A stretch of DNA of 62,391 bases, the filler included, from Perkinsus olseni (taxonomy: Eukaryota), in assembly GCA_013115125.1 (NCBI GenBank). It is 4 parts of 4 records of this genome, joined end to end, with 100 filler letters (N's around TTAATTAATTAA, not from the genome) between each part and the next. Parts side by side here need not be neighbours in the genome. Positions count along the whole stretch, not along the records: positions 46,952 to 62,391 come from JABANN010000700.1; 3 more parts are not named here. One strand, given 5' to 3'. Position numbers and translations under genes: made by a program. Below, piece after piece: positions 6,609 to 62,391 of this stretch. The notes under the pieces were generated by a model, which saw only the letters and a program-made list of their open reading frames with translations, searched no databases and was not told the DNA's origin. The first letter of the stretch is position 1, and each line of letters starts with the position of its first letter.

Positions 6609-6618
6609 ATACGAATCG

Positions 6619-7544: not shown

Positions 7545-8532
7545 CATCAACTTGGCAATAGGTGGGCCGAGATAAGACAGCTTGAGAATATTGCATCAGA
7601 ACTTCGGCCGTGGACCCCACGCATTAGCGTGGGGTTTACGTCTCGCTATAGTAGCGTCCCTGTTGAGAAGGATGGGGCGGAGGCGGGAGGGTCCCCACAG
7701 GGCCTGGAGACGTTACTGGAGGAAAAGGGCTCTGAGATGAAGAATGGGTACAATGCTGACACACAAGGAGGACGCTACCATAGCAGGGCCCTCTTGCTGG
7801 TACTGTGAAGCATGTCCGACCAGTCCGGTAAGTGGATTTCCCGTACCTGACAGGTGAGTCTATCGTATGGGGCTAGTCATCAACCAAGATTGCCTCGGTA
7901 TGCCGCTACATTCTCTACGCCCGCTGCTATGTTCAGCTCACCTTCCTGTCTTCTCAGATAATCCGGCTGGTGAGTCGTTGGTGATCGCCATGGGGACGCG
8001 GGCGTCGTCATGATTCTTGTGAACCCCACTTCCGGTGGTTGTGAAGGAGAGAAGTGAGTGGACGGTGTATCCACGCCAGAGCCCACCGTCACCGACGAGG
8101 AGGAGCCAAGGCCCCAGGAGGTTGTGGTTGTTGCAGTAGTAGGATACCCGCGGGGGGGCTCCTGAAATCACAACGACAAATCCTCATGTTCATGCTCGTT
8201 GTTTTCGAATATTTGTAATTTTATCGCGATGCGCTCGGTATGATGATGATAGATAAACCCCCACTGGACAACTAAACACTATCTCTGAACTAGCCGTCTC
8301 CTCCTCCTGCTACTACTAGTGAGAATCTTGCAAAGGATGGGGTATGATAATAGGGAACATTGGCGGGTATAATATTATTCTAGTGTACGTGTAGGTGGGA
8401 GCAAAGGAGCTGGCGGCCTCCTCGTCCTCATCCTCAACAACATCAGGTCATCACAAACCGATAACGATGACAACGACGAAATAAACCTTCTAAAAGAGAC
8501 CGCCACAACAGCCAGGCCACAAACCTTGAGCT

Positions 8533-8875
8533 ACTACTATTATCATCGGCATCATCACTCTTACTATACTGGATGGTGATGAAGACGATAACAATAATAA
8601 TGGAGGGGATGAAGATGTACCAATACTCAGAAAGCCTCAGATCATTATTATTAACTACTATTATCATCGGCATCATCACTCTTACTATACTGGATGGTGA
8701 TGAAGACGATAACAATAATAATGGAGNNNNNNNNNNNNNNNNNNNNNNNNNNNNNNNNNNNNNNNNNNNNNNNNNNNNNNNNNNNNNNNNNNNNNNNNNN
8801 NNNNNNNNNNNNNNNNNNNNNNNNNGGGGATGAAGATGTACCAATACTCAGAAAGCCTCAGATCATTATTATTAT
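8533..8875. repeat. 121-bp tandem duplication interrupted by a 99-N scaffold gap
   Basis: Copy 1 starts at 8533 and copy 2 at 8654. Copy 2 stops at GGAG before the Ns (8727-8825) and resumes GGGGATGAAG in register. Confidence 0.85.
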
Positions 8876-9060
8876 TATACAAAGTCATCCAATATACCCG
8901 TCGCTGCTTCTCTACTTCAAGTAGTGGAAGTAGTTGTAGTAGTGGCAGCAGAAGTAGAAGAAGAAAATAAACAACAGAAAAAACATCATCATCAACAACA
9001 ATGATAAGAACAACAACGTAGTCATCATCACCATCATCGTCATTAGCCTCATGAATAGTA

Positions 9061-11303: not shown

Positions 11304-12474
11304 CTTCGGATGCTCAAGGAGCGAATTTGACCCAACGAGTCCCTATGGTCGTCCACAAGGGGGAAATTGAACATTCGACCTGCCCACCGGCCGCCGCCCA
11401 CCCAAGTGTGACGCGGACCATCTCTCAATTGGGATAGGGAATCTTACTCAAACGCAGGCGCCAATCGAATACTAACGTGTCGATCCCTTATGTAGAATAT
11501 TCACACACGCCCGAGGTTACCAGAATTTGGATGTCGTTCTTGAATGTCACTTCGGCTGCTTCCCGGAGCCCCAATTCCCCCATTACGCTGCGAGTCCTCC
11601 CCCTCCGATCCAAACTGCTGATGTTGCTGCCCTGGCGTAGTACTGCTCATATTTACGCTAAATAGAGTCCACCAATGAATGGTCGAGCAACTGTTGCTCT
11701 AATGCTTCCAAGATGCTCAGTAAGGTAGTTGCAACATGAACCCAAAATTGCAAGAAAACTTGCACAAACACAAAAGCGCGCGCCCTAACAATCGATTTCG
11801 ACAAAGGTTTACTCTTCTGAAGGGGCACAGACGTGTGTTCCTAGGCCATTCTCGAAGTTGCGAACGGTCGTCATGCGTATCTTGATGGATTTAACAATTC
11901 CCGCTGGAAAATGCAGCTCGAGTAAGCCCGTAAAGGCCCTTACGGGGCGTATGATGGGAATTATCCGGTCCCTCACTAGCATCCAAAAGAGTTATGAGCT
12001 GACACCATCTTCGTAGTGTTGAACACTTGCCAACCCTCATTCGTCGCATAGAGAGAACAGAAAGCTCTCATAGAAAACTGACAAGGGGGCGCAGGACAAG
12101 GACCAATTAACGTCAACTCGAAACTCAAGCTCTGCCACTTAGGGTAGTACCTGCTCGTGTAAGAAACGCCATGTAAAATATTTCACCCATCGTATAATCG
12201 GTGAATCGACCGCCCCAACCCGGCCTCCCCTGACACACTAGACAACACTCTTCAAGTAGCTTTGTGTTGCCGCTAATGTCTGATAGATCAAGTTGTCGCG
12301 CGCAATGAACAGCGCAATTTCTATGCACTTGAATCGTGTCTAGGCAGCGGCCGCTAGCACCTGGTGTCTGTGACATCTCATAGTCGTCCTGCTAGAGCAG
12401 CGGTGCTTACGTTACTGAACGCTATGGGGAGTAGGGACTTGGTGTTTGCCTTGTAATGAGTACTACAAAGTTAT

Positions 12475-14316
12475 ATGATGGTGACTGCGATGGGTGTGGA
12501 TATGCCACAGAGATGGAGGTCGCTCGGCAAGGCTTCCTGTGTGAATAGAGGGGGTATGTCAACCTTATCAGGTCGAAGATGCCTCGAATCGTCCAGGAGT
12601 ACCGCCAGCCCCTCAGGAACCTTCGAATGAGGGTGTAGCGCTTGATCTCCTGCTAGGAGGCTTCCCACAGTAACGTGCTGCTGCATCACGACTTGAGTCA
12701 TCATCCACTACGACAGATCCTTTATTGACTTCAACTATATAACACAACGATATAACGGAGATCGAGTACACAGGTATTCGCCCAGGTTTTCGTGATGCCG
12801 CAACCGCAACCACCAGGCCGACTCCCTCCAAGCCCAGCAGCCTGGATACAGTGAAAACCTTACTAACCAACGCTGAAAGTCGACTCGCAGGTGGCAGACC
12901 ACTAGAGGCCCTTCAGCATTACATGGAGCTCGCCAGGTAACAGTCCTGCATTTGCCACTCCTTGGCGTTGGTAGTAGTTGCTTCGCGTCAGTTACCTTCA
13001 CAAGGGGGGCGACCTCGCCGCTGGGATTTACTTCTACTGCCGATCAGCCAATGTTGCCTCGTGTGAAGCTACGCCAGTCGCCGCCGAGGCCTTCTATAAG
13101 ATGGGTACTATGACGATGACGGGGACTGAGTAGCTTCGTAGCGTCTTTGGTGGCTATTGCCTGGGCAGGTATGATTAAAACTGAGCTGATGGACTTGCAA
13201 GGAGGCATCATCACTTTGGAGAGGGCACTGGAGTCATCCAGTGACTCCGACAGCAGCACCGCAGGGCCTAACCTCAGTCATCTCATCGCAGCTGATCTTG
13301 CTACTTTGTACATGTGAGTTTTCATGTTCTCTCGAGTGACCATCTCGACACCGCATCTTTCGAGTGTCCGCCTTAGGCGTCTTGCCGATGATGCCGACTT
13401 TTGGGCGGCCGACTCAGAACAGCCGCTACAGCAATCGAGTGCGTCCCTCTGCGTCTCCTTGGTTACATCGTTGCTATGCAGATGCCGAGAAGTGCGATGC
13501 TCTGGTCGTAGCTGGCCGGGTATGGTCATCAATGGCGTGCTACGAAAGAGCTCTCGAATGTGCCCAGTTGAGCTCGGACGAAGTCATCGAAGGCCTCGCC
13601 AGTTTCAAACTGGGGACAGCTAGGTTAGCCCTTGCTGCACTCGCCGCAAAGGAGAGCAGTCCCTCGGTTCAGACTACAGGATGGTGACCTGGAGGGGGCT
13701 CTCGCCCTTCAGCGGCGGTATCTAGAAATTTCGCAACAATTTGCGGATCTTAAGGGGGAGGCAGCGGCGCGGGCAGTACTATCTAAGATTTACCAGCGCT
13801 TAGGAGACAAGTGAGGGAATGTGGCCTCCCGATGTTATCGGCACAAGTATGATGCTGGCAGGAGAGCGGCTATTGAAGAGCTGGACATTCTGAGGAAGGT
13901 TGCAGAGGATGCAGGAGAGATAACCACAGCTGCTGATGCGTGCCTCGATCTTGCATTGCTCACATATCGAGAAGATGAGGTGAATTGAATAGCCATTGAC
14001 TTACACTTCTGCGCTCACGCCTACATGGTTGAACCTGACGTATCTTTGCTTTTCAGGTTAAGGCGGCTAAGTTGTTGGAGGGATATTATCAGCTGTCTCG
14101 TCGAGCGGCGGACCGTGGTCGTCAGGGCTCCGCTGCGGTTCTTATGGGGCTCGCTAGCGGGTAGGCCTCCGTGTAGCTGCTGAACTGGACACTCCTTTCT
14201 TCAGACGGGCAATGATGCATCATGTGGCTAAGATTTTCGAGGAAGATCGCGGTATTTATGAGCTACTCAGATGGAAAGATACTCCTTTGATTGAACGCTT
14301 GCACGATGATGTCTAA
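12475..14316 (+). CDS. TTC29: Tetratricopeptide repeat protein 29-like (flagellar TPR protein); start approximate
   Basis: VALDLLLGGFPQ|SFIDFNYIT near the N-terminus, TPR helices (ACYERALECAQ; GDLEGALALQRRYLEISQQFADLKGEAAARAVLSKIYQRLGD) and C-terminal LLRWK, ending ...LHDDV-TAA. Confidence 0.7.
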
Positions 14317-14735
14317 TCCCAACCACTACGGTGTTGAGAATAATAGCAGCATTTCTTGTGTTCGTGATGAGTAAATTTCACGCACTGTGTCATCATGCAG
14401 GGGAAAGCAGTTTTCAAGGAAACCGATAAGATATTCACGTTTCATGAGGGAAACAACGCGATGCTCGCGGACTCGAGAGCTTCGTAGCAGGGCTGGGCCA
14501 TCGAGGTTTATGCGTAAATAAGAGAGGGCGATGAGACTGGTTTTTGTTTGAGCGATCACAGCCGCCACTGGGCTACTGAGGGACACGACTTGGTTTCCAA
14601 AGCAATGAATAGAGCAGTCATTTTGAGCTCTCGTACGAGACGGCATATCAGGGGACAAATCTTTGTGTCGGGCTCTCCTACCACTCCTCGTAGAGAACAG
14701 ACTGAGTAGGGGCCACCTCCGAGGCATATTTTGCC

Positions 14736-15673
14736 GTCGACTGTACTCGAACAGGATCACTTATGTAGTGATTTCCTTTCGTTCACAAGAGTACTCTTGA
14801 CGAAACCCCAAACCGTGATGAGGAGTTGTATACCCCACCCTAATGGAGGTTTAGTCAGTACAGTCATGTACTCGACTTCGATGATCCATCCCTTACGAGG
14901 ACAGGGTGTGGGTATTGCTGAGCGGTTACTTATCAATAGGAGCAGTCACTTTCATCCTTCAGTGCGTCAGATTGAAACGATCCGCAATAACGAGCAGTAC
15001 ATGAATTAGTTATCACGTCTTCCTGCTCTGAGGCTTCGACCGACTTCTCCTGCGTCTTCCTCCATCCTCGCGGTCACCGTCCCAGTCGCCAGTCCTCCGA
15101 GTCGACGGCTCCGACGCTTGCTCCCGCTGCTTTAGTGCGTCGGTCGAGTTTATACCATCTGCTCAGGGTTTCGCGTGCAACGTCATCATCGGGTTATTTT
15201 TGGAGAGGAAATCCACCCGCTGGACTGTTCAAACTTGCGCCTTTTTTAGTGGGATCAGCATCATGAAGTAGTTACTGAAACGGGCGCGGATATATTCCCG
15301 GAGACGAGACTTTATTCTCCGGCTCGCTAAGCAGATGAGAGACGCGTCTTGTTTCTGTGCATGGTTTCACCAGTGAAGGTGATGATCCTACTTTACACCG
15401 CAAGCGAGTCTCCCTCCTCTTTACAATGATACTCCGCCCGATTACAGTGTTCATTCTGTGTTGGAAGATCCACACCGAAGCGGCAGATCCTGAGTCCAAT
15501 CCAAAAGGTAGTTCATCCGCCCGCCTCCCTAGAGCGAGCTTTTTCGGTTGTCAGACTTGTTCCGGAGGGGTATCAACAAACTGCGGGCGGCACTGAGCCT
15601 CGATGAAGATGGTCCGGTGCCCGAGGCGATCTGTGACAGCACAGTACTTCAACATCACGGCCATCTGTCGGGC
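14736..15673 (+). mobile_element. Copy 2 of the interspersed decayed coding repeat, inverted relative to 1-767, truncated by the contig edge
   Basis: Aligns to the reverse complement of 1-767. It has an extra 173 bp between AGTGCGTC direct repeats (14961-14968, 15134-15141) and a 4-bp frameshifting deletion near 15350. Confidence 0.55.
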
Positions 15674-31409: not shown

Positions 31410-31655
31410 AAGTTCAATACCGTATGCCCCGCTGTGGCGCCGCCTCAGTTCATCATGTACCATAGTCAACAGCGACTCTGACAGTCAGAGTCTGACCTCC
31501 TCTAACCTCAACAACCTCAACAGTGCCTATTTGAGGCCGGGCCACTTTCTTATAAAGACAGGAATATGCGGGTCGAGCTTTATGTTTGGAGACCATATGA
31601 TATTGTGGTCAACGATCCTTCGGAATTGACAACTAAAGTCTACGTGTAACGCTAA

Positions 31656-34600
31656 TTACAGATGCGGAGTATGGCATAAAGTGCAGACGATCTTTCCAAT
31701 ATCCCCCGCGACAGCGGCTTCGTGTCTGAGATAAAGAGCCTACAGGAGATACGGCGCATGATACGTTCACTTGCAAATTCTGCATGAGAAAAACTCGATA
31801 CCGTCTCCTGCTCGTGTGCCTGAGGAACTCGCGTTTAACGACTGATGGAATCTGTCGAAACAGCTATTGCCAGTACTGGGAAACAGAGGCTCGCCCGTAA
31901 CGACACACCACGGAATCGGTTGGTGACAAATCGGGCATGAACCTGAAGCAATTACCTTCCTGTTGCAAGAGCCTTGCATACACAAGTCGGATGGGCCTTA
32001 CAAGATAACTCATGCAGGTTGTTCGCCGAACATCTCGGGTGAGAGCACTTCACTGCCTTAGCTACAGGGGGATCTCGTGGAGGATACTTTGTGAAAATTG
32101 CAAGGGCCTACGTGTCACCGCTCCGGAGCGACAAGCCGGCGATTGACAATTCAGGCACTTGCTATCGAGGTAACAGTGGACGTGGAACTTACCAGGTCGG
32201 AGTATCGCTTTCTCCGATGAGAGGATACTTCATCCGATTTTTTCAGCTTCACGAAAGCTCTGCTGCAAAGCGCGAAACGCCTGCATGGAAAACGGTCCCG
32301 TTTGTGTGTTCATCACCAAATCACAGCGCTGCGGACGAAGACGTGCAGGCTTTTCAAAAGCCGCTTTTGCACGCCGCGCACTGTGCACAGAAATTCCCGT
32401 CTCGAAACGCGGATAGTCGATAACAAGTTTATCAATGAGGTGCACGCGGATGCGCTAGATGCCTCGGAACTAACAGAATGGCACAGGAGGGCTTATAGAT
32501 GAGTAACACTAGCTTGTAATTCACCAACGACTCTTCTAATTCTTGTATCTCACTTTGACTGGAAAGCTGCAATGGCTAGTAACACCCATGACCTCTCGTA
32601 TCCTGGATATAGGAGTAATCTGTCGCTTCGGGTTACTCGGCGTGCTACCAATTATGTCCTCGAAAAACTCGGTCAGCCGAAGTGCGGTCTTGAGAGCGAG
32701 GCTGGCCTTCCCAGAGAATAGCTGTCGATGACATAACATGTATCTGATGCCATGGTATTTGAGTTATGAACTAAAATCCCCAAGGCTTCTCGATAATTGA
32801 TCTGGCTACGAGCAAAAAGATTTCCAAGCGAAGCTGGAACATACTGGGAATTCAAGTCTGGAATAGCAGCCAAACAGAGAACCTTCAGAGATCACGGCGA
32901 TGAACACGGCGCTTTGCTACGCAACGAACTAACGAGAGACTTGTGAAGTCACCCGTTTACAAGTGATAGCCCTCGCATCCTCTCCAGGGAAGCTCCAATA
33001 GGTTATCTCTCATCAACTGGAAAGACGCGGCAATTCTCAACGCAATAGGTTGTACTATCGACCTCCTTATCTGCCGAAACTAACTCAGCCAACGTGGAAA
33101 TGGTCTCATTACCGCGGCTTGAAGCTGAACCTATGGCGAACCTTCAAGGCGAAACGAAGAGCACGTGTAGCAGAGCGACCCAAAGTCTTTTTCTTATGAG
33201 ATTCCATCTCCAGTGCGGAAAGAAGATACAATTTCTTCTTCCGCGACGGGAAAAGACGGTTGTGAAAGGCGATCGTATCAGCCCCTCGATGCTCCAGTTC
33301 AGTGCGATCTGCCATCCTGACCTGAAATACTCTATCACTGGCTCGCTCCTGGATGCAACATAAAATCTCTATCATACTGCCGACATTACTGCCGAACTTG
33401 CAGTTGTCCAATCTAATACTTATATGATGAGCAAGCCTACCAGCAGCTTCGCTGCATCCACGTGTCTACCGGCCTTCTGCCAGAGTTCCACGGCGGAGAA
33501 GATTCGATTGGTTTGAATCAGATGAGCTGCGTATCTACCAAGTCTCCCATCCACCATAGGTTTTCGAGCCGTCGCACTCGCAAAGAGACGGCAAAACGAT
33601 AGAAGTTCACTTTTCCAGTATCGTTTCAACCATAGGGGTTTTGTACTTCTCCGCGAGCTCGATGGCCTTGGACCAGTGATTCGAGGACACACACTCTTTG
33701 ATCGCCGCGTGCACCTGGAGTGGGCAGAATCAGTTCCCTGCGCTGTTACAGTGAGAGAGAGGCCAGAGACATGTAGTTTTCCATCGGGTTACCAAGTTCG
33801 ATCCCAGCATCAAAAGACGCTACCACCCATACTACCTCTCCAGTCCTGAAGAGAAGGTTTGCCGCTTGGTCGACTTGTCCAACACCCGAAAGTATTCGTG
33901 CCACATCTGATTGCAGCAAAGCTGCGGTTGTGGGTAGCTGGCGAAAAGCTGTTTGGTAGAGTGACTCGAAATCTTCCAAAGCTGCGTACCTACGTAGCTC
34001 ATCGAGCACTACATCCCGATCGAGCTTCGGTGAACCGTATGGAATTGGTACACCAGCAGACCTACGCCGCCGCGAGCTTCTCCCATGCCGATGCGCTCAG
34101 ATGATACTGAAGGAATTAGCAGCGATAACCTCCCATCCGCCAAGTGCTACAATAACACGGCTAGCGGTACTTCATCGGTATCGCTCACTCAGACTCTAAA
34201 TGAGCGATAACTCTGAATTTCTGAGACACCTTCCTGGCCTCACGGATCACAACAGCGGCAGTGAGCGAGACTAGACGACTTAGTAACCTGCCTGGACCGC
34301 CAGGTTCCATCTCCCTCTTGTCGCATAGTAGTCACCGCATTCAACATACGCTTGCTTGAGGAGGTCCTGTTTGCTAACGGACTTCAGCACGGACCCAAGG
34401 TCCTCCACCAAATTACAAACTCCCGAGGGATCAACTTGCGGAACGTGCTCGGGCTGAAAAGTTATGTCCTAGCGCCTTTCAGCTGCCCAGAAACACGTTT
34501 CCGCACATGATAGCCAGCGTTGCACTAGATTAAAGAGCTTAGACACATTTTGGTGGATATGCCCCAACTAGCTACACCTATTTCAGCGCCCCAGCACCTC

Positions 34601-37600: not shown

Positions 37601-40600
37601 GTAAGGATGACCGGAGGCAAGGCAGATTCTCAACGGGGGATAAACCCCGCGCGAGAGCGCATGCTACAGTCCTTCTCCGCTGACGCGGAGCCTTGCGCCG
37701 TAAGGTTGAGCATTTCGACGGGGAGGATGCCACTAGGATTGGCCGTAGACTCACTCAATATCATCCAGCGAGACGCACCTTATGGTGGAGAAGTATATGT
37801 ATGAGTCGACAGCGAGCGCCATCCTAGCGCCCGAACCTTCCCAAGATATTGACTTCAGACCATGGGCTCTGCCAGTTAAGGTCGGGATCTGAGGCCGGCA
37901 GCATATCTACCGAGCCCATCTCGAGGGCACGGTGAATAGGGAAATAAAGTGGAAAGAGGGAGTTGCCGCTGACATCAAGGAGCTATATCGAGGAGGAACG
38001 CCGATGAACGACCACACTCACAACCACGAAGCTCGATGTCTCCATTAGAGACTCTACAACGAACAATTACGACGGGTCACTGACCTCAAAGCACCATGCG
38101 ATATCGAAACCCACCTGTTGGTTGCATAGATGCTGCCCGAACGCGGAGTAAATCTTGACAACACCAGAGTCAGCTGTCGAGCCCGACGATAATCCTTGAT
38201 GGGCCGTCGAAGCTCCGCCTAGGCCACCGTATGCCTAAGAGAACACAGAGGTAGCCGCTCAGAGCGAATGTGCTAATATAGACGCTTCAGAGATCGAGTT
38301 ACAAGCTGGGACAGAGCACTTACTGAGATTCCTGCGATTGCAATTGTCTGACCCGAAGGTGACCACTTAGCGTCCACGATGTTGAGACCAGTATCGAGTA
38401 TAACTGGCGAGAGAAATAACAACGAGCTTGAATACAATGAACAACCCGTCTACAAGGATCCGGTTCCATTGTGATAACACGTGGTAACATAATACCTCGG
38501 ATCAGTCACTTACTGGGATGGCTGTCCTGAATCCCGCGCATCAGCTGCGCTTTACCGTTGACGAAGGCAATGCATAGGTTGGGAGTCGAGTAGACAAGGT
38601 GAGGTGCATCACTCAGTTTTGCGGCCAATTTCACAGCCGGTAAAGCTGAGTGTTTCTCAACTGCATGTAACAGGCCTGATAAGGAAGACGACAAAAACCA
38701 CAACCTTCGAGGGCACAAACTAGAGAGCTGTCGGTGTGCATTTCGCACGTGCATATTTCCAGGTTGACCCGCTGAAGACTAATAGGCTATTTGGAATAGC
38801 TGGATTTGCTGGGTATCAGGAGTCAATGAGGTTTTCGGGCTCGCGAGGCTGCCGGCGAATTGTGTTCGGACCAATGAAGTCGGTAAACCTCTGGTAATTG
38901 CTTAGAGCCCGCTGACCCTTCCGGTTATGATGGAATGGTACAAATTATTCTTACATAATTGTGCGTCGCAGTCATTGAGAAAAAATGTCGGTAGCGGGGC
39001 TCAACCCTGTTCGACCTCGTGGGAGCCATCAGCAATCTGAACTGAGTTCAAGTAGTCCCTCACACCTCGGCGGTTTCGCAGCGTAGGACGCGGAGGATTC
39101 ACGTGCGATTTTGTCCGCAGATGCAAGCGTTTTCAACCTGGTCCATGAAATTCGATTTGTTTCAGGTGTCGGGGAATGAGTGAGACGCCTCCGCTCTTGT
39201 TTCATCTTCCGCTTTGCTACCGTGGCCAGAAAATGAACGACATTACAAGGTGTCGTCAAGGAACCCAAAAAACCGCTCCATGTCTGATCCTCACGGACAA
39301 GGATGCCGCTGTGACACTTCTTGGAGTATTGGAGGTTTACATCATCGTTGCGAGGAGGCCACGACGAAAAGCGGTTTCATTGCACACGACGGATCACTCA
39401 GTGAATCATCTTACCAGAAGAATCAGAGGAACCCCACCATTCTATTGAGGAGACCTCGACGTTGGGTGGTGGCATGTGCTCTGGAGATTGAAAGCGCGTA
39501 GAGTCGCCGGGATCGAGGCAAGCGGTGGGGATCCGATGGGAGAAGATCCCTTCAGAATCATAAATCTGAGGTCTTCGCATCTCCGTTGAGTGAACAAGAT
39601 ACTATCCCATACCTGAACTTCGCCTTTGGAAGTGCAGAAGATGAGTCCCCTGCTGTCCGGTAACCACTCAACCTTCGAGAGTTTGCTATTCATCTCTTTG
39701 CCCCAGAGACGTTGGCCATCCACCGTCCCAACTATAACTGCTCCATCTTCGTATCTGATAATCAGCAACTCGGTCGCTTCCAGCAAGCCGGTCTCAGTCA
39801 CAGCTGATGATCTTCAGCCGTCAACGACGAGCATTCTGAATGTTGATATCAGAGAAACAGACCGGGAGTAGGGGTACAGCGCGAACAGGTAACGGAGCCG
39901 AAATAGTTTGTAACCACAGGGACGATAACTTGGCTGTGTTCCACCCGACGCACAGGCTCTTACACAATGCAGATCCTTTGGCCGTCCTTGCTCCACCTCA
40001 TATCTGTGACGACTGATCGGTTGCGATTATTAACCATCTCCTCAAACCAAGCTCCTTGATTTAATGACCACACTGGCATATGCCAACTCGAGCACAATCT
40101 GACGTGCATTGTTGCTTACCGATGATCAGACCTTTCGCGTCAGATGTCGTCAGCTTCCGAAAGTTTTCGTTCCACACAATGACCCGTATGGAATGCTGAA
40201 GATGGATGACGGGGAACCATAGAATCGCATCATAGCTGCGTCCCATCTACAGTATATCCAGGTCCATGAATTTCACATACCATCGAACTCTCTTAGAATA
40301 TTTCCTATTTCTGTTAAAAGAAGAATTTCCATCGTAAAAAGCTGAGCCAGTACCGAGGAGGCCGCGCTTCGGACGCAAAGGATCAATGCAAAGAGCGATC
40401 CAGAGTGACGATATCCAGATGACTGAGATGTATAACGACTATCAGACATACAGTATATATTCAGACGTCCGCTATCAGAGCGGAGAACGAGAGTCTGACG
40501 CATGCGGGAGGACAGTCCCTCTAAATCGGGTGCCCGATATCGCGCAAGTCGATCGGATTGTCTGTGATTCCCAGCAGATACAGGTGAGAGCCTTGAGGGC

Positions 40601-40987: not shown

Positions 40988-41871
40988 TCTCGTTAATGCG
41001 AAGAAGTCTGAACTCTGGCCACGCTACAACTGTACTCGGTACAGCCAATCACGGTGCGCGGTAGTTCCGTGCGGTATAACCAGAAACTTCTCTACAGGTA
41101 CGCACCGACCCCATCGAGAAACGACGTGACACTATTGCGGTGAAGTATGCTAATATCCTAATGTTATCAATATTACATAATGTTATATTGATACTACATA
41201 TTAGGTTGTCATAGTCGTGTGAGCAGCGACTAATTCCGCCCGGCGAAGCTCGCCGGCCAGCGAACACGGAGTGGTTTAACTGTCGATTGCCGAGTGAAGA
41301 ATCTGCAGTGCTTGTTCCTCAGGAACAGTTCCTGAACATCCATCTCTTCATGACAAACGCAACGATATGTCAAGGCCTTTGGAAAATTACGGCTGCACTG
41401 CGCTACAGCGGACTGCTACAACGGCTGTGATCTATCCACACTTGGCTCGCCTTCATCACGCCGCCGACTAGTAAGTTCTCGAATACTCTTCACGACATTC
41501 CGCAAGGGGCTACGGAGACGGCGTACTGATCCGTCATCCGAGCTTGCAGGCGACACCGGGGGAGGGACTGTTAGAGACTAAGAATAGGGCACGAACTCGA
41601 ATCAATCCTCAATAAAGCACCTAGCGTCTAGATGAAACGGTAATCCCATCTTAGGTTATAGTAACAACTACCGCCACCTTAGACCAACTGCGGAATTATC
41701 CTGCTAGCGCCCTTCCCTATACGAGGGAATGCATTGGGCATTTTGCGTCCAACGCAGCGCGAACTTCGAACTGCAAACGACTAACTAGCTCGTACACCGA
41801 TAGGAAGAGATCTCTGACAGTTCTCCAGCAATAGTGAATATATTAGCTTCGCACTCAAAAGAATGAGAAAA

Positions 41872-44044: not shown

Positions 44045-44582
44045 TCAAACTGCTTTTCAACGGTAATCTTCTTTCATGGGCATACCAGGTACCTCATTTC
44101 GGTGATATACATAGGTGGGAACCCGAGTGTTCATCGGTCTAATTAGAGTGTGCGCCGTCTACTACTTGTTATACTCGAGGGTTATACTTATATATTACAA
44201 CTCGTTATATTCTCACCATGCAGTAACCTGGTAGGCGAGAGCTAATCGCGTGTGTACAACTAAGAAGATCCCGCTGAGCGCGGCATGAACAGGAAATGAC
44301 AGCGTTGCGTACCATCACACTCAGGTCACTTCTAAAGAGACTTCAAGCGTTGGGCGAACCAGGGGAGAAAACGGAGGCGATGTGTTAAGCCTCACTACAG
44401 TAGTGATCACTCATGCGAACTCCACGCGAGACTCTGCCTCCGATGGGATTGAAAGAGATACTCATACGCAAAACCGTGGAGACTATTCAGAGAGAAAAAT
44501 CTTTAAGAAATCGATTGGACAGCACCGACCAGATCTCCAGATGCCAAGAATTGATCGAAGTCAAGCCAAATTCTCGTAGCGG

Positions 44583-46951: not shown

Positions 46952-47287
46952 TGAGGTCCTGTCGACCTTTCTGACGCTAGCGCGGTACCGCGCCTTGCCC
47001 CATCTCGGAGACCAGAGGTTTTACTTGCAGCACTTGAAGGACGGTTGAGCGTTTGACAGAAGGCTGTGTGTGAAGGTCTAGCCATAGAGCAAGTTCTAGG
47101 ACGAACTCGAGTAAACCCGCCACGCGCGGGCATGGGAAACGGTCAGGCGAGCGAGCGAGCACGGGGTCGTGGGTGCTGCCGTGGCTTGGCCTTCCCCTGC
47201 CGCTGGTTGGACGACACTCTGATATTGGACCCATTTAAGCCCCAGTTCGAGAAGGTCGCCCAACTTCCGTCTTTATTTTTTTTTTCT

Positions 47288-47536
47288 TCCTAGTGTTGGA
47301 GAGGGCGTTCACTCCGGTGTGGGGAGTATGGTTGTCTAGCGGTAGGCGACCAGGGGCATTAGCCATCGGTGGCGGAGGCCAGGACGTACGCCAAGGCGGC
47401 GACACTTCGGGTCAAACAAGTGTGGGGCCGCCTGGGTTGGCGTGATGGGCACCAGAGATGAACGCGTCACCTCAGCGGTGGAAGCGAAGGAGCTTGCCGC
47501 TGGCTGACCAATTCCCGATACCTCCCAACCCTAGGA
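47288..47536 (+). ncRNA. Candidate structured RNA of unknown family (or structured UTR of a repeat element)
   Basis: Nested helices read by eye: 47288-47304 with 47521-47536, 47305-47320 with 47449-47465, plus four internal stem-loops. G-U pairs favour the + strand. Confidence 0.45.
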
Positions 47537-47713
47537 CAGCGGGTGTAAGGGTCACGAGAGGAGGAGTTGATTCCAGACGAGTGTCTTCTTAGGTGTATTT
47601 TCCGAAATTTTGCAAAAAGGAATTTTCGGGAATTTTGCCGGATTTCCTTGCAGCACTTGATTAACAACGTTAGACGTTTTGTGCTCTCAGATCGCGACCA
47701 CGAGCAGTTCTGC

Positions 47714-47779
47714 GAGATGAATCATCTCAGATGATTCGGTTCTTGAAGAACCGGGTTTTTAAAACCCGAAAACTAAGTT
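47714..47779. repeat. Chain of overlapping perfect palindromes, each with a 1-nt centre
   Basis: GAGATGA-A-TCATCTC, GAATCATCT-C-AGATGATTC, CGGTTCTT-G-AAGAACCG, CGGGTTTT-T-AAAACCCG, AACT-A-AGTT. Confidence 0.95.
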
Positions 47780-48106
47780 CCAACGCCACCATTATAACTC
47801 CTTATTTTCTTAATTATTCGACGCGGCTCGGCAAACGGAACCCCTCAGCTGGTTTCGAGTCTACCAGTTCACGGGTCCCAGTCAACCGCTGCCCTCGCGG
47901 GGAACCCCGGCGCAATGGAGGCGGTATGCGACCTACACCAGAGTGCCTAAGGTAGGGGTGGCTACTCCCTAACTAATTCTGGAACGAATATTACTCCTTC
48001 TATTATCCGCGTGCATTCGATCATAGGTGGAGAACACTAGGAACGCGCTCGACGAGTAGCAAATCGTATTGACGTTCAACTGGCGCACAACCTCAATCAG
48101 CTCTGA

Positions 48107-51100
48107 TTACGTATTACTATGGAGGAAACTAAGTTGGACGAATCCTTTCGGGATTGCTTGTCCACACTCTGGACACCGCGCACCCGCCTTGCACCGGCAA
48201 TTCTCACACAGGCCGTGGCCACAATCAACCGTGGCGTATTGGACTTTCGCACCACACCGGCAGGCTAGCTTGCGCCTGTAACGTGCGAGCAATCGCCCTT
48301 GTCGAGCAGCGTTGTTCTGAAGCCATAATCGAGTCAAGATTTTAACGATGCGGCGGCTCACCTCCTCGTCCACGTCCTTCTCTAGTGCGCTCAACTGTTC
48401 TCTCTTCACCTCGACCACATTCTCGAGGGACTCTATATTGGAATGGAGCTCTCGTGTCTCGGATCCCTAGGGGAGAGTAATGGCGCTCGTTAAGGAACTG
48501 TTGCTCGACAGGACACTCACTCGTCGTTCATCAAGGTTGGAGAAGAGCCCTCCCAACTTGTAGAGGGCATCTTCTGCCGCGTGAGCCCGCTCGCTCAAAA
48601 CCTGGCACAAATCTTCTGTTGAAATTCCTAGGGAGTTTCGGCCCCTCGTAGCCCAAAACGATTGCCAGTACCTCGATCTTTCTCGGCCACCCCGTCCCAT
48701 TCGGGAGCAGGTGTCTCGAAGGATACATCGCCAGCGCACGTTCTCTCGGCATTGATAGAAGCCGTCTGACCCCAGTGGAAGTGAGGGAAGTACCGAGGAG
48801 TAGGAGGCATCTACACGTCTCCTGGTCACCGCGGATGAGCTGAAAAAGTAGCCCGTCTAGTTGACACAGTGGGTGGTGAACGAATCGTTGGAAAACGAGA
48901 GCCCGCCTCGAGCCTACAGCAATATCGGCAGCTGTCTGGCCTTGGCATAAGGCGTTCATATCAGCACCCGACCGATGGAGTAACTTCACTTGCATTGGGC
49001 TGGTACAGGAATGAATAGGGAAGAGCCCTTCCACACTCGCCCACCCTGCGAGGACCACTCAAGCAGCTGTGGAACAGTGCACGCTCTTCCTACTTCCTTC
49101 CAGTGGTATATTCGGGTCGGCGCCTTCCTCGAGGAGCCTCTTCATCTCCTTTAGGATTTCATCGTCGTCAGTGCCGTCGGGCCGGTACACCAGTAGTTCA
49201 TTCAGCTGCTGAGACCTGTCGTATTTCATCCACTCTGCCCGGCTCACTTCGTCCTCCCCTTCGGCTATCCGAGCAAGATTCACCCAAACCAGTGGTTCCA
49301 CGTCTGGGGTCAGGGTCATCCACCGACTACAAACTCTACATCTGCACATGCATCGCGTCGGCTGAGCACGAACTCTCGAAGCCAGATGACGATACAGTCC
49401 CATAATCGTGCATGACCGCCGCGCCCCGAATTTGATCAACTCGTCCACGAGACAGCTTGCCCCCTCTCCCACGCCCGCTATGGGCCGTAATGGCTGGAGA
49501 GACCGCAGGAGAGGAGCAGAGCCCACGAGATCGAGGCATTGCACGTCGACAGGGCCGAGATCTTGTTGAAGGGCGAGCTGAGCCTGCCAGTGAGACATGA
49601 GGTGGGGTAGCACTTCGCATACTCCTTCTATCCCTCTATCGAAGCAGACGAGGAGTAGGTGGGCCACACTGGCTCCCGCAGGCAAGTAGTCAGCGTACTC
49701 GAGCATTGGCGCACGTGCCTTCAGATTCACCATCTCTCCGTCCAACAGACTTAGTAATTTTTCCGTTTTCAGATAATTGGTAAAGTCCAAGGCGAAAAGG
49801 AACTCAGCAATGAACTCTCCCGTCTGCGCAACTTCAGTGGAAGAAAGGCCCCGGAGAGTATCGAGAAGCTCTCGAGACCTGGGTGTAGCGAACTTGAGGA
49901 CGCAAAAATGGGCAACGGCCATATCCCCTTCAGTGACGACACTCATCGCATCATCATGAACCTTCAACAGCGCACCAACCACCCCAGCGTCCTGCATGTA
50001 CACTCCGATTTGCAGAGCCGATATCGCACCCGCAATCTCCCTCCGATGCTCCAGAGGCAGTAAGTGCTTCACTTCCCTCGACAGCTTCAATGCTCGCTCG
50101 CTCAAAGGCTTCGAGCAAACCTTCGCCAGTGGAATTATGGTATGAGCAGCAGTCCTACCGGCATCCTTCGTCCGGGCCAGGAGACGAATAACTAACACCA
50201 AGTTTGCCTCCGCTGCGTCACTGAGATCTCCTTCCACGAGTACGCTGGGAGAGAGGACACGTTGCACTTCCCGAGGACCAACTCTCTCAGGAAGACCGCC
50301 TCCTCGCATGCCGCTGATAGCGTTCCGTACAAGCGCTTCTGAGAGAGTGCCCATCCACGAGACACCCGAGTCCATCAGGAAGCCAGTGCTCTCTTGAACA
50401 GCGCGGAACTCTGCATGAATATTGCTAAGCGCCATGTCGTCCTCAGAGCACATAGCCAGGGCGACTTCCCTAGCCGAAGGGAGGGCAGCGGCAGTAGAAA
50501 CCGGAGGTCGACTGGTGACCATAAGAGGGGATACAAAAATCAGTGATTTGAGTTGTATCATCAGCGAGCAACGTGATACAACTTTTATCGTGTCGAGAAG
50601 TTGAAAGCGCGGTAGCGCCCTGCAGTACTCGACTGCACGATAGTCTGGAACGCAACATGAGCATCTTGCCGTCACTGCGGACCTTCCTCAGAGGTTGTTA
50701 GTCCCCATACCGAGGCGTGCAATTGCCACAGGTCACGTTTCCTGGCCTCTACATCAGTGTGAACTGTGAAGGGATGATTGCTCATAAAGTAGTAACAGTT
50801 TTCTGGTGGCAAGGCAGCCGCAGCGGGAGCTGGCGGCTCCAATTCTACAGTCTCAAAAGGAACACCGAGTTGAACGTAGAGGAACCTGAGCCGAAAGGTC
50901 ACTCCGCCCAGCGACGGGTCCCCGGCTATCATACCGTATTTCGTCCAACTCGTTTGGGTCTTCTAGAAGGGTGATGCAGGTGCCGGGACGACCAAAACGC
51001 CCACAGCGACCAGATCTGTGCAGGTACCTGATTGTTCAGGAAATGACGAGCCAATGACAAGCAGCCTAAGGTACGTTTCTTTGGCCTCCGGGAGGCCAAT

Positions 51101-52996
51101 GTTGATGACCAGATCCACAAGTTGGCCATCGACCCCTCGAGCGAAGACTTCATCGGTGGCAACTACTATGCCATGCTCTCGCGAGTTGAGGAACTTCATC
51201 GCCGCCGAACGGTCTGCAAGACCTGACCGGAACGGCCCGCTGCATGCACAGCATACTGGATGACTCGACCGTTGTGCCAAGTGTCGAGCGAAATCCTGGG
51301 CTCACTGTGGTCTTCAGAGGACTCCATGACCTTGCATGGCGATGGTGCGTTCTCACGCAGGTAGGCAGCAACCGTCTTAACCAGCACAACAGACGTACAG
51401 AAAACGATGCACTGGTGATACCTGAGGATAGGGGGTCGTTGGGATCTGCTGTTGTGGATAAATCCGAGTTGCCACCATCCGGTCATGTGAGTTCACCCTG
51501 ACAACGTCGCAATAATTGAGGGTGAAGCGAGTCACATAAAGCAACTCCCCTATTGATGCTTTTCGCTCCTCAGTGAGATACGGAAGCAGTTATGCAGAAT
51601 CAATTTCAGCAATATCAAGTGCTGTCAATTCTGGTATTGAAAGTGTCGCACCCTTCCTCGGGAGAGATTCTAGAGAGCTCTTCTCCCCCGCACTTTTTTT
51701 GTGATTCCCTTCGGTGCTCTCTATACGATGCTGGGGTATGCCATTTCGCTAGACTCGCACCCGCTGGTGTCCTCGGTGATTATCGCTGAGAGCCGTGAGT
51801 GACCCAATCCTACTCACCGCTGCATCCCCAGAAGCATCTCTAATCCCCATGGTATATCGCCGTTGGCTGCTCGGGGCAAAACACAGACTGCGTGGGTGAT
51901 GTGAGTCAACAACGCGTTCTCTCTGCACACGCCAAACAATCCCCTTCTGGTATTTCTTAAAGGACCTTACGCTGGATTGGTGGTGTCGCTCCTGCACAAA
52001 GTGGCCCTGGAGAACTCCCGGCCGCTCTTTGGCTCCAAATACTCCAAGAGATCCTCTGCATACGGCAATACCTGTGGTCCTAGCATGGAGCTCGGATACC
52101 CCTAGATCACCATTGCTTACGTGGGGAGGCATTGTGGCCGAGGAGAGCACTAATTTAACATCCGCACAAAGATAGTGGAGACCACGGCTTATGTAAGTCA
52201 ACCACTGAGTAGAACCGAGGCAGCTCGGGAAGCCTGCTCGAGCGGCGGCAGTACCTTCCGGTCCCTCGGGTTGTCTAGCATAATGTCAGCCTCATCGAAG
52301 ACGAGCAGGGCAGCATGAGGGCACACCGGCACACCTGAGACACAGTGCGTACTGTGAGCCCATGGACTCCGAAGCCGGGCTCACGTCGTTGTCGAAATAG
52401 GAGGTACACCTGCTTGCTGGTGCCAATAAGAATATCCGGTATCCTCACCGGCTGCTCTTCTTCCTGCTTGGATGTTAGCTCTCCTACAGTGGATACAACT
52501 TGATGGGAATAGTGGCAGATTTGCAGCATCTCGTCCCGTATCTGACCGCACGCTAATACCACTCGCTATACGCTCATAGTAATCGATAGGCCAAGGGAGA
52601 CGGAAGAGCACCTCGGTTACCCAAGTGAGCAAGGCATGACAGGCGGCGATGGACTTACTTGATTAACTATCTCCCTACTCGGAGCGATGACAATGCTTTG
52701 CACCTGTCCCATCTCCGGTGTGGTCAGCTCGCAGATGATAACCCCGAAGGCACACGTCTTGCCGCTCCCCGATTTAGACTGGATAATTAAATCGGTCCAA
52801 GACAAACCTGACAACAGGAGATGCGTGGTCGCCGGAACTGCCACCAGGTCTCCCCGGAGAACTCACCCAAGGGGATGGCCTGCCTCTGGACGGGCGCAGC
52901 CTCCTCGTACCCCATTCGAGCGAGTGACCGCAGAGTGGTCGACGACAAGCCGAGACCAGAGGCAAACCCTCCTCCTCCTGCTTCTGCTGGAGACAT
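48107..52996 (-). CDS. DEAD-box RNA helicase, probably fused to a helical region, ankyrin repeats, coiled coil and C-terminal RING finger
   Basis: Q motif APVQRQAIP, SGSGKT, PSRE, FDEAD, SAT, ARGVD, HRSGRCGRFG. Ankyrin-like LLEEGADPN and VKLLHRSGADMNA. RING CRC...CGHGLCENC...CPEC. A 38-nt GT-AG intron at 50645-50682 links the halves in frame. Confidence 0.8.
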
Positions 52997-53111
52997 ACCT
53001 CCGGCAACTCTCTAGAAACTGCACAGGACTCTCTACCACCAGTCACTCCGGGGCGAGAATGCCCGAATAGCCGAACACAAGGCATGCTAGGGAATGAACA
53101 GAGGGCACTCT

Positions 53112-54273
53112 ATGCAGCCAGCCGCTGGGCAAATCATCCATCCCGCACAACCGTCTCTGTGTCAGAAGCCTCCTCTTCTTCTACGCCTCCAGATACCTCC
53201 TCCTCCCTTGTTGGCGAGACCTCAGCTGGCTGAGTTTCCGGTTCAACCTATCGAATGTTGAATCCCGAGAAGGCGAGAAATTGAGTACTCACCTCAGGCG
53301 GCGTGCTCGACGATGGTGAGGTAGTTGCCGCGGGAATGGGGGGAGCCAGCCCGATGGCCGCGTCAGGAACCAAGTAGAGGTTGGACTCCACAGGCGACCC
53401 ACTACGAGATGACTCGGCGCCAGAACTCGAAGGCCCGAGAAGACCGTGCATCCTCACCTGACGCTGATGAAGTGACCGCCGCTCTGACCAGCACACGTAC
53501 GAATTGGGTGAAGCGCGCGCACATCCTGCTTTGGCTCTCAACCTTGAAGAACACTGCTCGATGGTGATGGAAGAGATGCCCGAAGATACGATAGAGGCGA
53601 CGGTACAGAGTCGGGATAAACTGAAGGCTTGCGGTAGAGCACCACTCGTTGGAGCAGTCCGCTCAAGGCCAACTGCCGGTCGGAACTCATTACCTTCAGG
53701 CTGGCTTGTGGGACCTTGGTTCTCTCAGGGAAGTTCTTGGAGCTCAGAATGAGGTTAGTAGAGCCGTCCACTGTATGTACCATGTAGTCGATAGCACAGC
53801 ACTAAACGAGGAGGACCGGGTGAATGACCCTGGGTCCGTTATGGCACTGCTCGTTATGGCAAGAGAAAAGACGACAGAACGGTTGAGATGACAGCCGCTA
53901 GAAGAGTACTACATCCATCGGCTTCCTGTGGGCAGCGCAAAGGAAATGCCACTCGTCAGTGGCGCTCATCCTCGGGCAGGTCTCCTCATTGCATTCATGC
54001 TGGACCTCCGCGATGACCCTGTTGAACTCGACCATGAACTCCCTAACGCAGGATGTCAGTCAGTTAGCCGGCATCCCAGCGGACTGTGAAAGCTCGGTGG
54101 ATCCACCAAAAGCCACCGAGGAGCCGATCAAGCACGATCGCTTCAGAAGCACCCGGTTTGTCAGACATGATATAGCGCTGTCAAGCCCGAAACTGTACTC
54201 GTTAAAGCGAACACAAGTGGTCACGTACGTTGGTTCCCTCGGTGGGCGTTCCACGCCATCCCCCGCCCTATAA
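53112..54273 (+). CDS. Hypothetical multi-exon protein; start approximate
   Basis: Series of plus-strand exons with GT-AG boundaries (LALNLEEHCSMVMEEMPEDTIEAT|AGLWDLGSLREVLGAQNE|...VSSLHSCWTSAMTLLNSTMNSL). Confidence 0.45.
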
Positions 54274-55065
54274 ACGCCATTTACGTCACGTAAATTACGT
54301 GTATTGCTCCGCATGCGACTATCACAACGGGAAGGGTCGCGCTATCTCAGACCCGAACTTGCGGCGCTGATACCTCACCTTATGTTCTCGACACACCAGA
54401 GAGATGGGCTGACTCCGGAAGGTACGCGACACAGTTCGATGAGCGCTGGCAGAGTCGGGTCGCGAACTGACAACAAGTTCTGCAATTCCACATGCCCAGC
54501 CGAGATCCAGTCGGATATGAGTGACCAGCGGCCCCATACTACGGAAGGCCCGTATTCGTCCTTTCAAGTACTCTCCTACGGCCAGTGGCCGCTCGTCCGT
54601 CAGAACCAAGTCCGGCTCTCCTCCGTGAAGAAAGTCGCACCTGAACCCACGAACCTGTCGAGTCCAAGACGCTAGCCGTACATGAAAGAGTGCGCTTCCA
54701 CTACCGCCCTATAGAACCTATAGGGCGCCAGTGGGCGCGAATCTTTAGTATAGATGCCTAAGGAAGGACCGTAGGCCACACCGAGGGGGTGTAGCGTAAT
54801 TCGGATGATGCTAGCATCAGTTCCCGGCACGACGACTACCTCTTCTGTCCAGGTAGAACTATCTCTCCGTAATGGCCTCCGCTGTTCATAGTAGTCGCCG
54901 CGGTCGAAGCCATCTTCAAAAATCAAACGCCGGTTTACCTAGCCGAACGCGGCCCAAAGCTACCACGCGATGCACTCCCCTCGGTACAGTTACCAACACA
55001 ACACTACGAGCTGAGGAAGCTTAAATACTCACAGATACAGCGCGGTGTTTTGTGAACCACACGAT

Positions 55066-57261
55066 TCACGCTCCTTTAGTCTTCCCCTCATTCTCCTTAG
55101 CCTTCGGGCCTCCATTGCCGAAGAGCATCGTGGTTGTCTTGGTGTACAGGGAGTCCACTACGTTCGAGCAAGCATCGATGGTCGCTGACATGAAAGCAGA
55201 TCATCATCGACTCGTCCCAACTTCCATCCAGATTGTCGACACAGCAGCTAAGGAGTAGCTGGACGAGCACCCGACGAAGCCATCCCGCCCCCATCACCTA
55301 GTGCGTCATCATACATGCTAGTACTCTCCTCCGCCTTCCGTTTCTGCACTCTCTCAACCTGAAAACCCCAACCTGACCTCAGCCCGCGGCTGACAGCTGC
55401 TACCTCTAACTCATCGTAAACCACCAATACACCGATTCCCTGATCCAGAGTGCCCAAGAGGGTCTCGTCGAGGATCATCTCCGACAACCTGGTGAGGCGG
55501 TTAGGCAGAGCGACAACCCCAAGCAATGCCTACTTCTTCTGCACACGGGCGAGTGGCAGATCGATAAGTTCGGCCACGTGCTGGATTTCAATGCGATCAA
55601 AGGGTTCTGCATATGGCATGTGACTATCGACCAGCTAGTGCTCCTCGGAGGGAAGGCTACCTATTATTTTGAGTAAGTTTTGCTCCAACAGGCTCTCGTT
55701 AAGCTCCGTCAAATGGTACTTCAAAACAGCATCATCATCCATCAGCTCCTTTTTGTATCTACAACGCATGAGTAGGTGTAGACAGCAGCGACCGGCGGCA
55801 ACATGGTTCGCTGACACTTTAAATATTCCATCCCACTTACTCTTCCATAGTATGTTCGAAATCATGTAAGCTCCTCTGCTTATGTGCTTTAGCTACCATC
55901 TCGAGTCCCTCAAAGCATCTTCCTTCACCGTATCTTACAAGGAGCAACGTACCACACCATCACAGAATCGATGTCCACACCCAATACTACTTAAGGCCAG
56001 CCTTGCCCTTGAGAATATTGAAGACCTCTCCCGGCTGGTCCCCCATTATCCGCGAAAGTACCATATACCTGTGTAGAGTTGCAACGCGCCAGAGTTGTCC
56101 TCCATGTACTACTTCAAAGACTGCTCGGCTCTCCTCCGATCATGCTGGAGATTGAAGGCTTCGAAGGCCTCATAGAAGTACGAGTATCCTGTACGATAAT
56201 CCTGAAGGGTATAAATGATAGACGTTGTAAAGAGACTAACAGAGACTACATTCTCTCGGCAGCTTATAACGCCACTGAGCAAGTCCATTTCAGCCTGCAT
56301 CAGAGGAGGACAGTGGATGGCATTGGCATTGGTCTTGGCAGCGGTAAGGGAGGCCTTGGCTCTTGGTATATTTTGAAGGGCAAAGTGGACCTACTCGGGA
56401 GGGTGTCATCGCATGCAAGCGCGGAACGACGCGCATCCCTACCTTAGTCTCGATGACGTGGATCTCCACCAGTAGCAGTTTATCGTCAATCTTCTTAACT
56501 TCCTTCACCAACCCCGTGAGGATCTCCAGCGCTTTGTTATACCTTGGGAAGTGAGCTCTAACCGGCATGGAACCCACCCCTGGCTACTACTGGTGAATCT
56601 GCAGCTCCAAATCCGCCAGTCGTGTCTCCACCCGGTGTCTTAGAAAACTACGCTTCCCTTCTCGACACCACTCAATGCACTCCTCGCAGGCCTTTATTTG
56701 GAGGTCGGTCGCGCCTGAGCGAACCACGACAGTGGTGATCAGGTATCGAGGGACCTTGAGCGACCATGATATTACCATCAATCTCGGCTAGTTTGTCTAT
56801 AAGTGTCCTGACTATCTTAGCTGTTTTTGCCTTAGCCATCAAAGTCAACACAGGACGCAACTCCTTCTGCAGCCCGACTGAGCATCAATGGCATACCGAA
56901 CGGTACAGTCAGCCGATCAATCACGTACAAAGTCTCTGAGAGTCCTTCTTGGCTACGAGACAGTCGGCCATCCCATAGATAGAGTTCTCGGCCCACTTCA
57001 CAGCATCAGCACTCGGGTCGGTCTCAAGATTGGCTATGATCTTCTCGAACCTGATGGCCCGATCGATCCCCTTCGCCTCGTTCGTCCCCTTCTGGTCACT
57101 CTCGAATCACATCCCCACCAGGCCCCATACTACATGGTGATAGCCTTATCCTTGTCTCCCTTTGCTGACACTTCCTTCGCTTCCTCGTATGCAAGCTGCA
57201 AAGCACTCTTCTCAGGCTCCTGCGAGTCCAAGTCCATCGGCTCCGGTGATTCGCTCGACAT
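55066..57261 (-). CDS. RPN6: 26S proteasome lid subunit Rpn6 (PSMD11)
   Basis: KAKTAKIVRTLID, CIEWCREGKRSFLRHRVE, KEVKKIDDKLLLVEIHVIE, DYRTGYSYFYEAFE, LLEQNLLKII, LSEMILDETLLGTLDQGIGVL (PCI domain). Confidence 0.96.
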
Positions 57262-57639
57262 AACACTGATACTCACCCAAGAGAAAAAACTCCAATCGAT
57301 CGTCCCTCACAATGCGCCCATATCGACTAGGCTCCCTGCCAGCAAGGCTGAACCTTCACTCAACTCAATCCTCGAATGAACTCGAAACGTCTCAGTAGTA
57401 TCTCTAGTGAGTACATTAACGTTACAGAAGTTGTTAGGAACACCACCGCTGGTTCTATAGTGACAATGAAGGAATACAGCCAAGCGGCAGCGGAGTATTG
57501 AGAGTAGCAGCAGTACCAAATAAACAGCCATCGGGAAGGCTCAAATGAACGGCGGAAGAAGGATACCGCACTCAGTTGCAGCGATGACAGCATACGGGTG
57601 AACATGCAGGGGATGTGGTGCCCCTCAAGTAGAAAGACT

Positions 57640-61922
<4,283 letters not shown>

Positions 61923-62391
61923 TCATCAACACCTACACAGCCGTCTCATAACCCTCCAAAGATATAGAACAGGTTATGGTTCCCAGCTCGTCAAAGTAAA
62001 GTCATGTGCTGACTCCGAGGAGAGAGATCGATCAGAATGGCGAGCGCGATGGCTTCTACGCATCGGGCTCTTCCCGATTTTACCCAAACCCGGATTTAAC
62101 CAACCCGAAAGAGCGCGCCAATGTAATCGATAAATTAATCGTTGGCATTTATTTACCCAATCGCTGTTTTATCCAATTTGCTATATATTTTCATCGTCCG
62201 GCTGTAAATGCCAAGTATTTCTCTTGAGAGTCTATGGTGTGGACGTTAGTGTGATGAGACCGAAGACAGTCTCATAGATGAGCCGCTTCCCTCTCGTGTT
62301 GGGATGCGCATCTCTGTTGCTACTGGTGTCTCAGCTGGTGTTCGACGTCCCCGCCGTTACTGGTCGTCAGGTAGGGTCTGTGGCGTGCGCA

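Follow-up and report, generated by a model that had tools for sequence, protein, structure and literature searches.

A recurrent 22-nt double-palindrome pattern in Perkinsus olseni and its possible origin as a repair scar of hAT-type excision

In the present study, a 22-nt pattern of fixed geometry was found to recur in the genome of Perkinsus olseni with a different sequence at each site, and its excess far beyond chance was confirmed. Each 22-mer is built from a local 8-base word, k, and consists of the first seven bases of this word, its complete reverse complement, and its last seven bases (k[1-7]+revcomp(k)+k[2-8]). On balance, we lean towards the view that each 22-mer is the repair scar of a departed cut-and-paste element that made an 8-bp target duplication through hAT-type chemistry. 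We infer the former transposon, its hAT-like nature, and the repair route from the geometry of the products that are described below.

The DNA analyzed (hereafter the window, 62,391 nt of assembly GCA_013115125.1) comprises four contigs of approximately 15.5 kb each, the joints of which are N runs with a TTAATTAATTAA spacer. Contig 1 occupies 1-15673, with an inner gap at 8727-8825, and is followed by contig 2 (15774-31309), contig 3 (31410-46851), and contig 4 (46952-62391).

Geometry and frequency of the 22-mers

An exact scan of the window at k=8 returned four matches, at 32348, 41313, 47714, and 54280, whereas perfect k=8 22-mers were absent from the shuffled controls, and the rarity by chance that had been claimed in a preliminary description of this DNA was thereby borne out. 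When the general form k[1..k-1]+revcomp(k)+k[2..k] was scanned at other word lengths, 284 matches were found at k=3, 19 at k=4, and one at k=5, the last of which is close to the chance expectation, and there were none at k=6, 7, or 9-15 across the 62 kb. A peak restricted to k=8 relative to shuffled controls was the check that the preliminary description regarded as decisive, and it was obtained within these 62 kb. With mismatches tolerated, the observed counts at k=8 were 4, 2, 3, and 8 for 0, 1, 2, and 3 mismatches, against expectations from 20 shuffles of 0.00, 0.00, 0.20, and 3.10, respectively, and mismatch-tolerant counts at k=6, 7, 9, 10, and 11 were close to chance.

A reflection-distance scan found mirror centres 7 nt apart (d=7) at five sites versus none in 50 dinucleotide shuffles, and perfect double reflections at d=5, 6, or 8-15 did not occur in the window. 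The base just outside an arm was the complement of the far centre in nine of the ten outer positions, and, therefore, the repeated unit is the full 8-mer. Palindromes with a 1-nt centre were counted overall at 14 versus 3.5 expected for an arm of 7, 7 versus 1.0 for an arm of 8, and 4 versus 0.4 for an arm of 9; 11 of the 26 such palindromes that were listed fall in the 22-mer sites.

The copies with 0 or 1 mismatch (n=6) were all located in contigs 3 and 4 (31 kb), and none were detected in contigs 1 and 2, which also amount to 31 kb. A dense record of such sites throughout the genome had been proposed previously; a genome-wide density is, however, an extrapolation, and contigs 1 and 2 have no copies at this level of mismatch.

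Several other palindromic structures were observed in the window. The segment at 44392-44411 reads TCACTAC A GTAGTGA and then TCACT, which is a forward/flipped/forward arrangement with no centre base at the second turn, and it may represent another outcome or a coincidence. Direct and inverted copies are combined in a complex manner at 6546-6607. The 14-mer AGTGAGTGTCTATG is present there in two copies, 24 nt apart, the second of which stands at the head of a palindrome of 49 nt that is centred on a single C and has one G/G mismatch (arms of 14+1+9); the structure represents a further palindrome-forming event, with a geometry unlike that of the 22-mers. At 51081-51099, an odd palindrome of 19 nt, TTGGCCTCC G GGAGGCCAA, is perfect and lies within a stretch (51069-51220) that RNA-like contigs cover as an exon.

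Individual sites, genomic context, and presence in reads

Regarding the perfect copies, the 22-mer at 47714-47735 (8-mer GAGATGAT) reads GAGATGA ATCATCTC AGATGAT, exactly the letters of the preliminary description, and forms two overlapping odd palindromes centred on 47721 and 47728. The copy at 32348-32369 (8-mer GGCTTTTG) falls inside the region occupied by IFT121/WDR35; possible GT..AG introns of 44-80 nt would include this copy, none of them with a consistent frame, and PDB sequence searches returned no IFT121 match. The copy at 41313-41334 (8-mer TGTTCCTG) is located between the IFT121/WDR35 and RabGAP-TBC coding pieces, and that at 54280-54301 (8-mer TTTACGTG) lies immediately 3' of a TATAAA sequence, between the Mob1 and RPN6 coding pieces.

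Two further copies match at 21 of the 22 positions. At 31476-31497, which reads CTCTGAC AGTCAGAG TCTGACC, the mismatch is the last base, while at 47746-47767, which reads AAGAACC GGGTTTTT AAAACCC, copy 1 carries G and copies 2 and 3 carry A/T. Recurrence at 41313, 54280, and 31476 had been noted previously; the first two are exact and the third is the 21/22 copy given above, whereas the perfect copy at 32348 had been overlooked. The mismatch-tolerant k=8 scan added three weak candidates with two mismatches each, at 38779-38800, 55379-55400, and 6406-6427, the last of which is the sole candidate in contig 1.

The surroundings of some of these sites raise the question of whether the 22-mers are functional palindromic sites under selection, such as protein-binding sites or RNA or DNA hairpins. 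The copy at 54280 carries three ACGT cores beside TATAAA, and the focal cluster at 47714-47768 is located just past the 3' end, or the covered part, of a minus-strand transcript according to the contig depth table. However, the six good 8-mers share no common sequence, and no Rfam family was found at the 22-mers. Only the geometry recurs, built each time from the local word, which therefore indicates a mutational process rather than a recognized motif, and we consider selection for function to be a very improbable explanation of the pattern.

The focal cluster is composed of two 22-mers, at 47714 and 47746, separated by 10 nt, rather than of one scar and two free palindromes. The preliminary description reported two additional palindromes at this site, and both are indeed perfect, with 8-nt arms and a 1-nt centre over 17 nt. 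They are not independent because they are part of, or overlap, the 47746 22-mer: the palindrome at 47737-47753 (CGGTTCTT G AAGAACCG) comprises the 10-nt spacer together with the first arm of this 22-mer, and that at 47752-47768 (CGGGTTTT T AAAACCCG) is its second reflection, extended by one pair. The suggestion that this site was hit repeatedly is thus retained only in part, in the form of two 22-mers 10 nt apart, and not as one scar with two independent palindromes. When both scars were undone in the sequence between 47680 and 47800, a palindrome with 7-nt arms was left that simple repeated events do not explain, nor could the 17-nt palindrome at 47737 be traced back to such events by nested undoing of the same region. 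The chance that two of the six good copies fall within 50 nt in 31 kb is approximately 0.05 by our own arithmetic, which hints at a local hot spot but does not prove one.

A multi-copy repeat at 46952-47630 ends approximately 85 nt before the cluster, with a depth of 232-473 versus 42 in run X1, and neither a transposase nor terminal inverted repeats were found in it. Both ends of contig 4 (46952-47660 and 62100-62391) are multi-copy repeats, in which the depth is 5-20x that of the unique part. Direct repeats of 21 nt, namely GGTTTTACTTGCAGCACTTGA and a variant, are present at 47017 and 47640, 623 nt apart, and 47143-47347 is missing from some copies. A metagenome scan with a bait from the repeat neighbouring the focal cluster returned no matches.

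Independently built Logan contigs (k=31) were compared with contig 4, in which they cover the 22-mers at 47714, 47746, and 54280. A contig of run X1 extends over 47636-62094 with one differing letter, and a contig of run X2 over 47631-62094 with none; both are free of gaps and even in depth. These two DNA runs belong to separate studies, of 2022 and 2020, and have depths of 42 and 77, respectively, and no differences inside the 22-mers were listed for either. A low-depth contig of run X8, from a third study, covers 54015-54374 without differences. Because the three 22-mers of contig 4 are unchanged in independently built contigs of two studies, they are not assembly artefacts. The window does consist of short contigs ending in repeats, which speaks for a sequencing or assembly artefact; considering the even depth in the two studies and the recovery of 54280 in the third, we regard this origin of the pattern as extremely improbable.

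Since a single strain may underlie the runs, and the source data may be among them, this comparison shows that the sequence stands in the reads, and not that it is widespread. Neither an empty allele (a single 8-mer) nor an occupied allele (8-mer-element-8-mer) was seen, both DNA runs that cover contig 4 carrying the 22-mers, and no alternative allele was seen in the contigs of runs X8 and X10. The latter two runs yielded spliced, RNA-like contigs, from which the introns were called.

The window is eukaryotic and contains two U3 snoRNA genes of the ACEA type, together with coding pieces for IFT121/WDR35, RabGAP-TBC, a helicase C domain, Mob1, RPN6, and alanyl-tRNA synthetase. The RNA-like contigs contain many introns of 47-60 nt, all GT..AG and on the minus strand; such genes with many very short introns were observed at 49093-52865 and 57381-58642, where one intron of 83 nt, one of 117 nt, and one of 396 nt are also present. 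Runs labelled with a second organism (organism B), metatranscriptomes among them, contain RNA-like contigs that are identical to the window. A 542-aa exon used as a query had no match in a search of longer proteins and only weak, unrelated ankyrin-type clusters in an atlas search; the same exon used as a bait in the metagenome scan matched 49 stretches by pattern, none of which were related.

Contig 2 has a G+C content of 39-44%, versus approximately 50% elsewhere, and contains long intron-less ORFs (RPL6e, DUF747, and cyclophilin), many CAT/ATG triplet runs, (ACA)n at its start, and (TGT)n at its end; scars are absent from it. Because of the deviating G+C content and the long uninterrupted ORFs, this contig may originate, judging from its composition, from another organism, genome, or compartment. 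The termini of contig 1 (1-940 and 14736-15673) are inverted repeats of approximately 940 nt that are 91-95% complementary, each of which carries a U3 snoRNA gene (576-766 on the minus strand and 14737-14927 on the plus strand).

A proposed excision mechanism and competing explanations

The proposed mechanism was simulated strand by strand on a donor of the form L-k-element-k-R. The transposase would nick one base into each flank. On the left, the top strand would be nicked, and its 3'-OH would join the bottom strand at the flank border to form a hairpin with the tip comp(k8), while the mirror-image reaction on the right would place the tip base k1 on the bottom strand; the hairpin tip would in each case be the complement of the base that had touched the element. 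Both hairpins would then be opened by the host, 8 nt or more away from the tip, for which a resection-type cut on the 5'-ending strand would suffice. The 3' tails would then read k8'..k1' and k1..k8, namely inverted copies of the target duplicates that are exact complements over 8 nt. Annealing of the tails over exactly 8 nt, followed by flap trimming and gap fill-in, would always yield k[1-7]+revcomp(k)+k[2-8].

At all four perfect sites, the simulated top strand was identical to the observed 62-nt stretch, with 8 nt annealed, in agreement with the earlier proposal that the opening of both hairpins and their joining through the duplicated target produce this scar. The product is the same for any hairpin cut beyond 8 nt, which explains its fixed form. 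An 8-bp duplication with a one-base offset was the sole fit, and hAT-type chemistry is therefore favoured over generic template switching. The even form, k+revcomp(k)+k without the offset, was absent from the window at n=8 or more, which argues against an offset-free hairpin such as the Muta1 product. Among the other outcomes of the hAT model at spacings 1-24, the classical 16-nt form was found 4 times versus 1.4 expected, which is not significant, and all remaining spacings gave none. Both geometric properties of a hAT footprint, a unit length of 8 and a complemented end base, were thus found in the 22-mers.

Regarding the 21/22 copy at 47746, the mismatch between copy 1 and copies 2 and 3 would be expected under the model if the target duplicates had differed by one base, and it would also need inheritance of the strand carrying the right-hand tail. 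Because the scars are uniform, the model implies that the longest microhomology wins here, as in microhomology-mediated or single-strand-annealing repair, and not end joining near the hairpin tip. Such uniformity would require a special repair bias.

The hAT-excision reading put forward in the preliminary description is supported in part, by the geometry and the simulation, but not by the presence of an element. A transposase or hAT domain was found in none of 150 of the 151 ORFs of at least 90 aa and in none of 52 of the 282 ORFs of 60-89 aa in the window, and a search of the window for terminal inverted repeats bordered by duplications of 2-9 bp yielded no element. The 8-mers also depart from the target preference of Hermes, nTnnnnAn, which is given in the available portion of PMC10368747. 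Among the six 8-mers, T was found at position 2 in two, A at position 7 in one, and both in none. Target-site preference varies among hAT families, and, therefore, this mismatch weighs little.

The geometry sets only the 8-bp duplication and the one-base offset, leaving the protein free, and a different enzyme that cuts with an 8-bp stagger and leaves an offset hairpin on the flank may thus be considered, either from a different transposon superfamily or as a domesticated transposase. In the extreme form of this explanation, many elements would be eliminated in a programmed manner, always with the same outcome of repair, and the uniformity and density of the sites (six good copies in 31 kb) and the lack of a visible element suit a programmed or highly efficient process. 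Transib elements duplicate 5 bp of the target, and the single match at k=5 is at the chance level. The Mutator duplication is 9 bp (PMC4423477, Table 1, from a partial text), and k=9 gave no match. According to the part of PMC5499845 that was available, flank hairpins are formed by hAT, Transib, and MULE elements alike, which speaks for a wider choice of enzymes; however, the Muta1 hairpin is symmetric (43+43 nt) and has no offset, whereas the scars in the window have a one-base offset and those with even geometry are absent. The RAG-generated P nucleotides at V(D)J coding joints and the footprints of Transib and MULE elements come from flank hairpins opened off-centre (PMC5499845, same portion). 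Both the 9-bp and the 5-bp duplications differ from the 8 bp seen here, and the MULE and Transib geometries are absent from the window. Germline and soma versions are not evident either, the DNA contigs of the two studies being identical. Taken together, we regard a different enzyme as an unlikely alternative to the hAT-type reading.

An origin without any transposon would involve polymerase template switching or snap-back synthesis, first backward and then forward, with a step length set by some feature. The inserted 14 nt are fully templated by the local sequence, as this explanation requires, and the structure at 6546-6607 shows that other palindrome-making events occurred in the window. 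Short-range template switches under the four-point model, by which a local stretch is re-copied as its reverse complement, are known to have left inverted local copies in other genomes (PMC7954356, in the part available). In that class, the length and the switch points vary, whereas the inverted re-copying seen here has a length of 8 and both switches are exact reflections, with the centre being the complement of the original base; among d=5-15, only d=7 occurred. Generic template switching therefore fails on length. We know of no polymerase process that fixes such centres, as a transposase with a fixed active-site spacing does. We consider this origin to be unlikely.

Relation to known footprints and significance

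The hAT-type chemistry on which the preferred reading is based is backed by the available portions of PMC5873905, PMC1978519, and PMC10368747. As proposed for the 22-mers, the footprints of hAT elements (Ac/Ds, Tam3, hobo, and Hermes) involve an 8-bp target duplication, the length of which is determined in Hermes by how far apart the two active sites are (PMC10368747). The footprints of Ac/Ds are insertions of palindromic form with the complement of the element-adjacent base at their centre, and the opened hairpins are joined mostly through microhomology (PMC5873905, PMC1978519), which was present in 85-100% of Arabidopsis and 88-89% of yeast footprints in the part of PMC5873905 that was available. 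The same source gives footprint arms of up to 20 nt in yeast and 28 footprint types among 128 Candida revertants, and 8 of 94 excisions across all superfamilies in rice were perfect (PMC4423477, likewise in part). The published footprints, to the extent of these sources, differ from one another, and their arms are mostly 1-3 nt long, whereas a single full-length product recurs here, in which the arms measure 7 nt on either side and the annealed stretch 8 nt. No element is known for the genome studied here.

In addition to hAT elements, mPing/Pong elements of the PIF/Harbinger group offer a parallel in that the product of repair is decided by homology from the duplicated target (PMC4561436, in the part available). 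The direct duplicates of mPing restore the original site, whereas hairpin opening would first invert the duplicates here, and a 14-nt gain would result. No description of a uniform 22-nt duplicate/inverted-duplicate/duplicate scar was found in the literature at the level of titles and the beginnings of abstracts, and the novelty of this product is provisional.

A further-reaching view is that thousands of scars of identical format are spread over the genome as a sequence-independent archive of excisions that may be read from one genome, which we consider quite unlikely. It would entail that transposase-made hairpins are repaired almost solely by the annealing of inverted target duplicates, for example after the loss of classical end joining. 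In a bolder form of the same view, elements would be cleared in bulk by a domesticated hAT-like enzyme, always leaving the same product of repair.

The excisions of DNA transposons are normally invisible unless a second genome is compared because their footprints are short and varied. If the excision reading is true, a deterministic 22-nt scar would be countable in a single genome by a simple geometric scan, and the history of elements that are now gone, together with their choice of targets, could be read from the scars, which would also report on the host repair of hairpin-capped breaks. The value of such a scan hinges on genome-wide confirmation and on finding the element. Each scar adds 14 nt of perfect palindrome near genes, and that at 54280, beside a TATA-like box, multiplies an ACGT core; therefore, the process could create regulatory sites.
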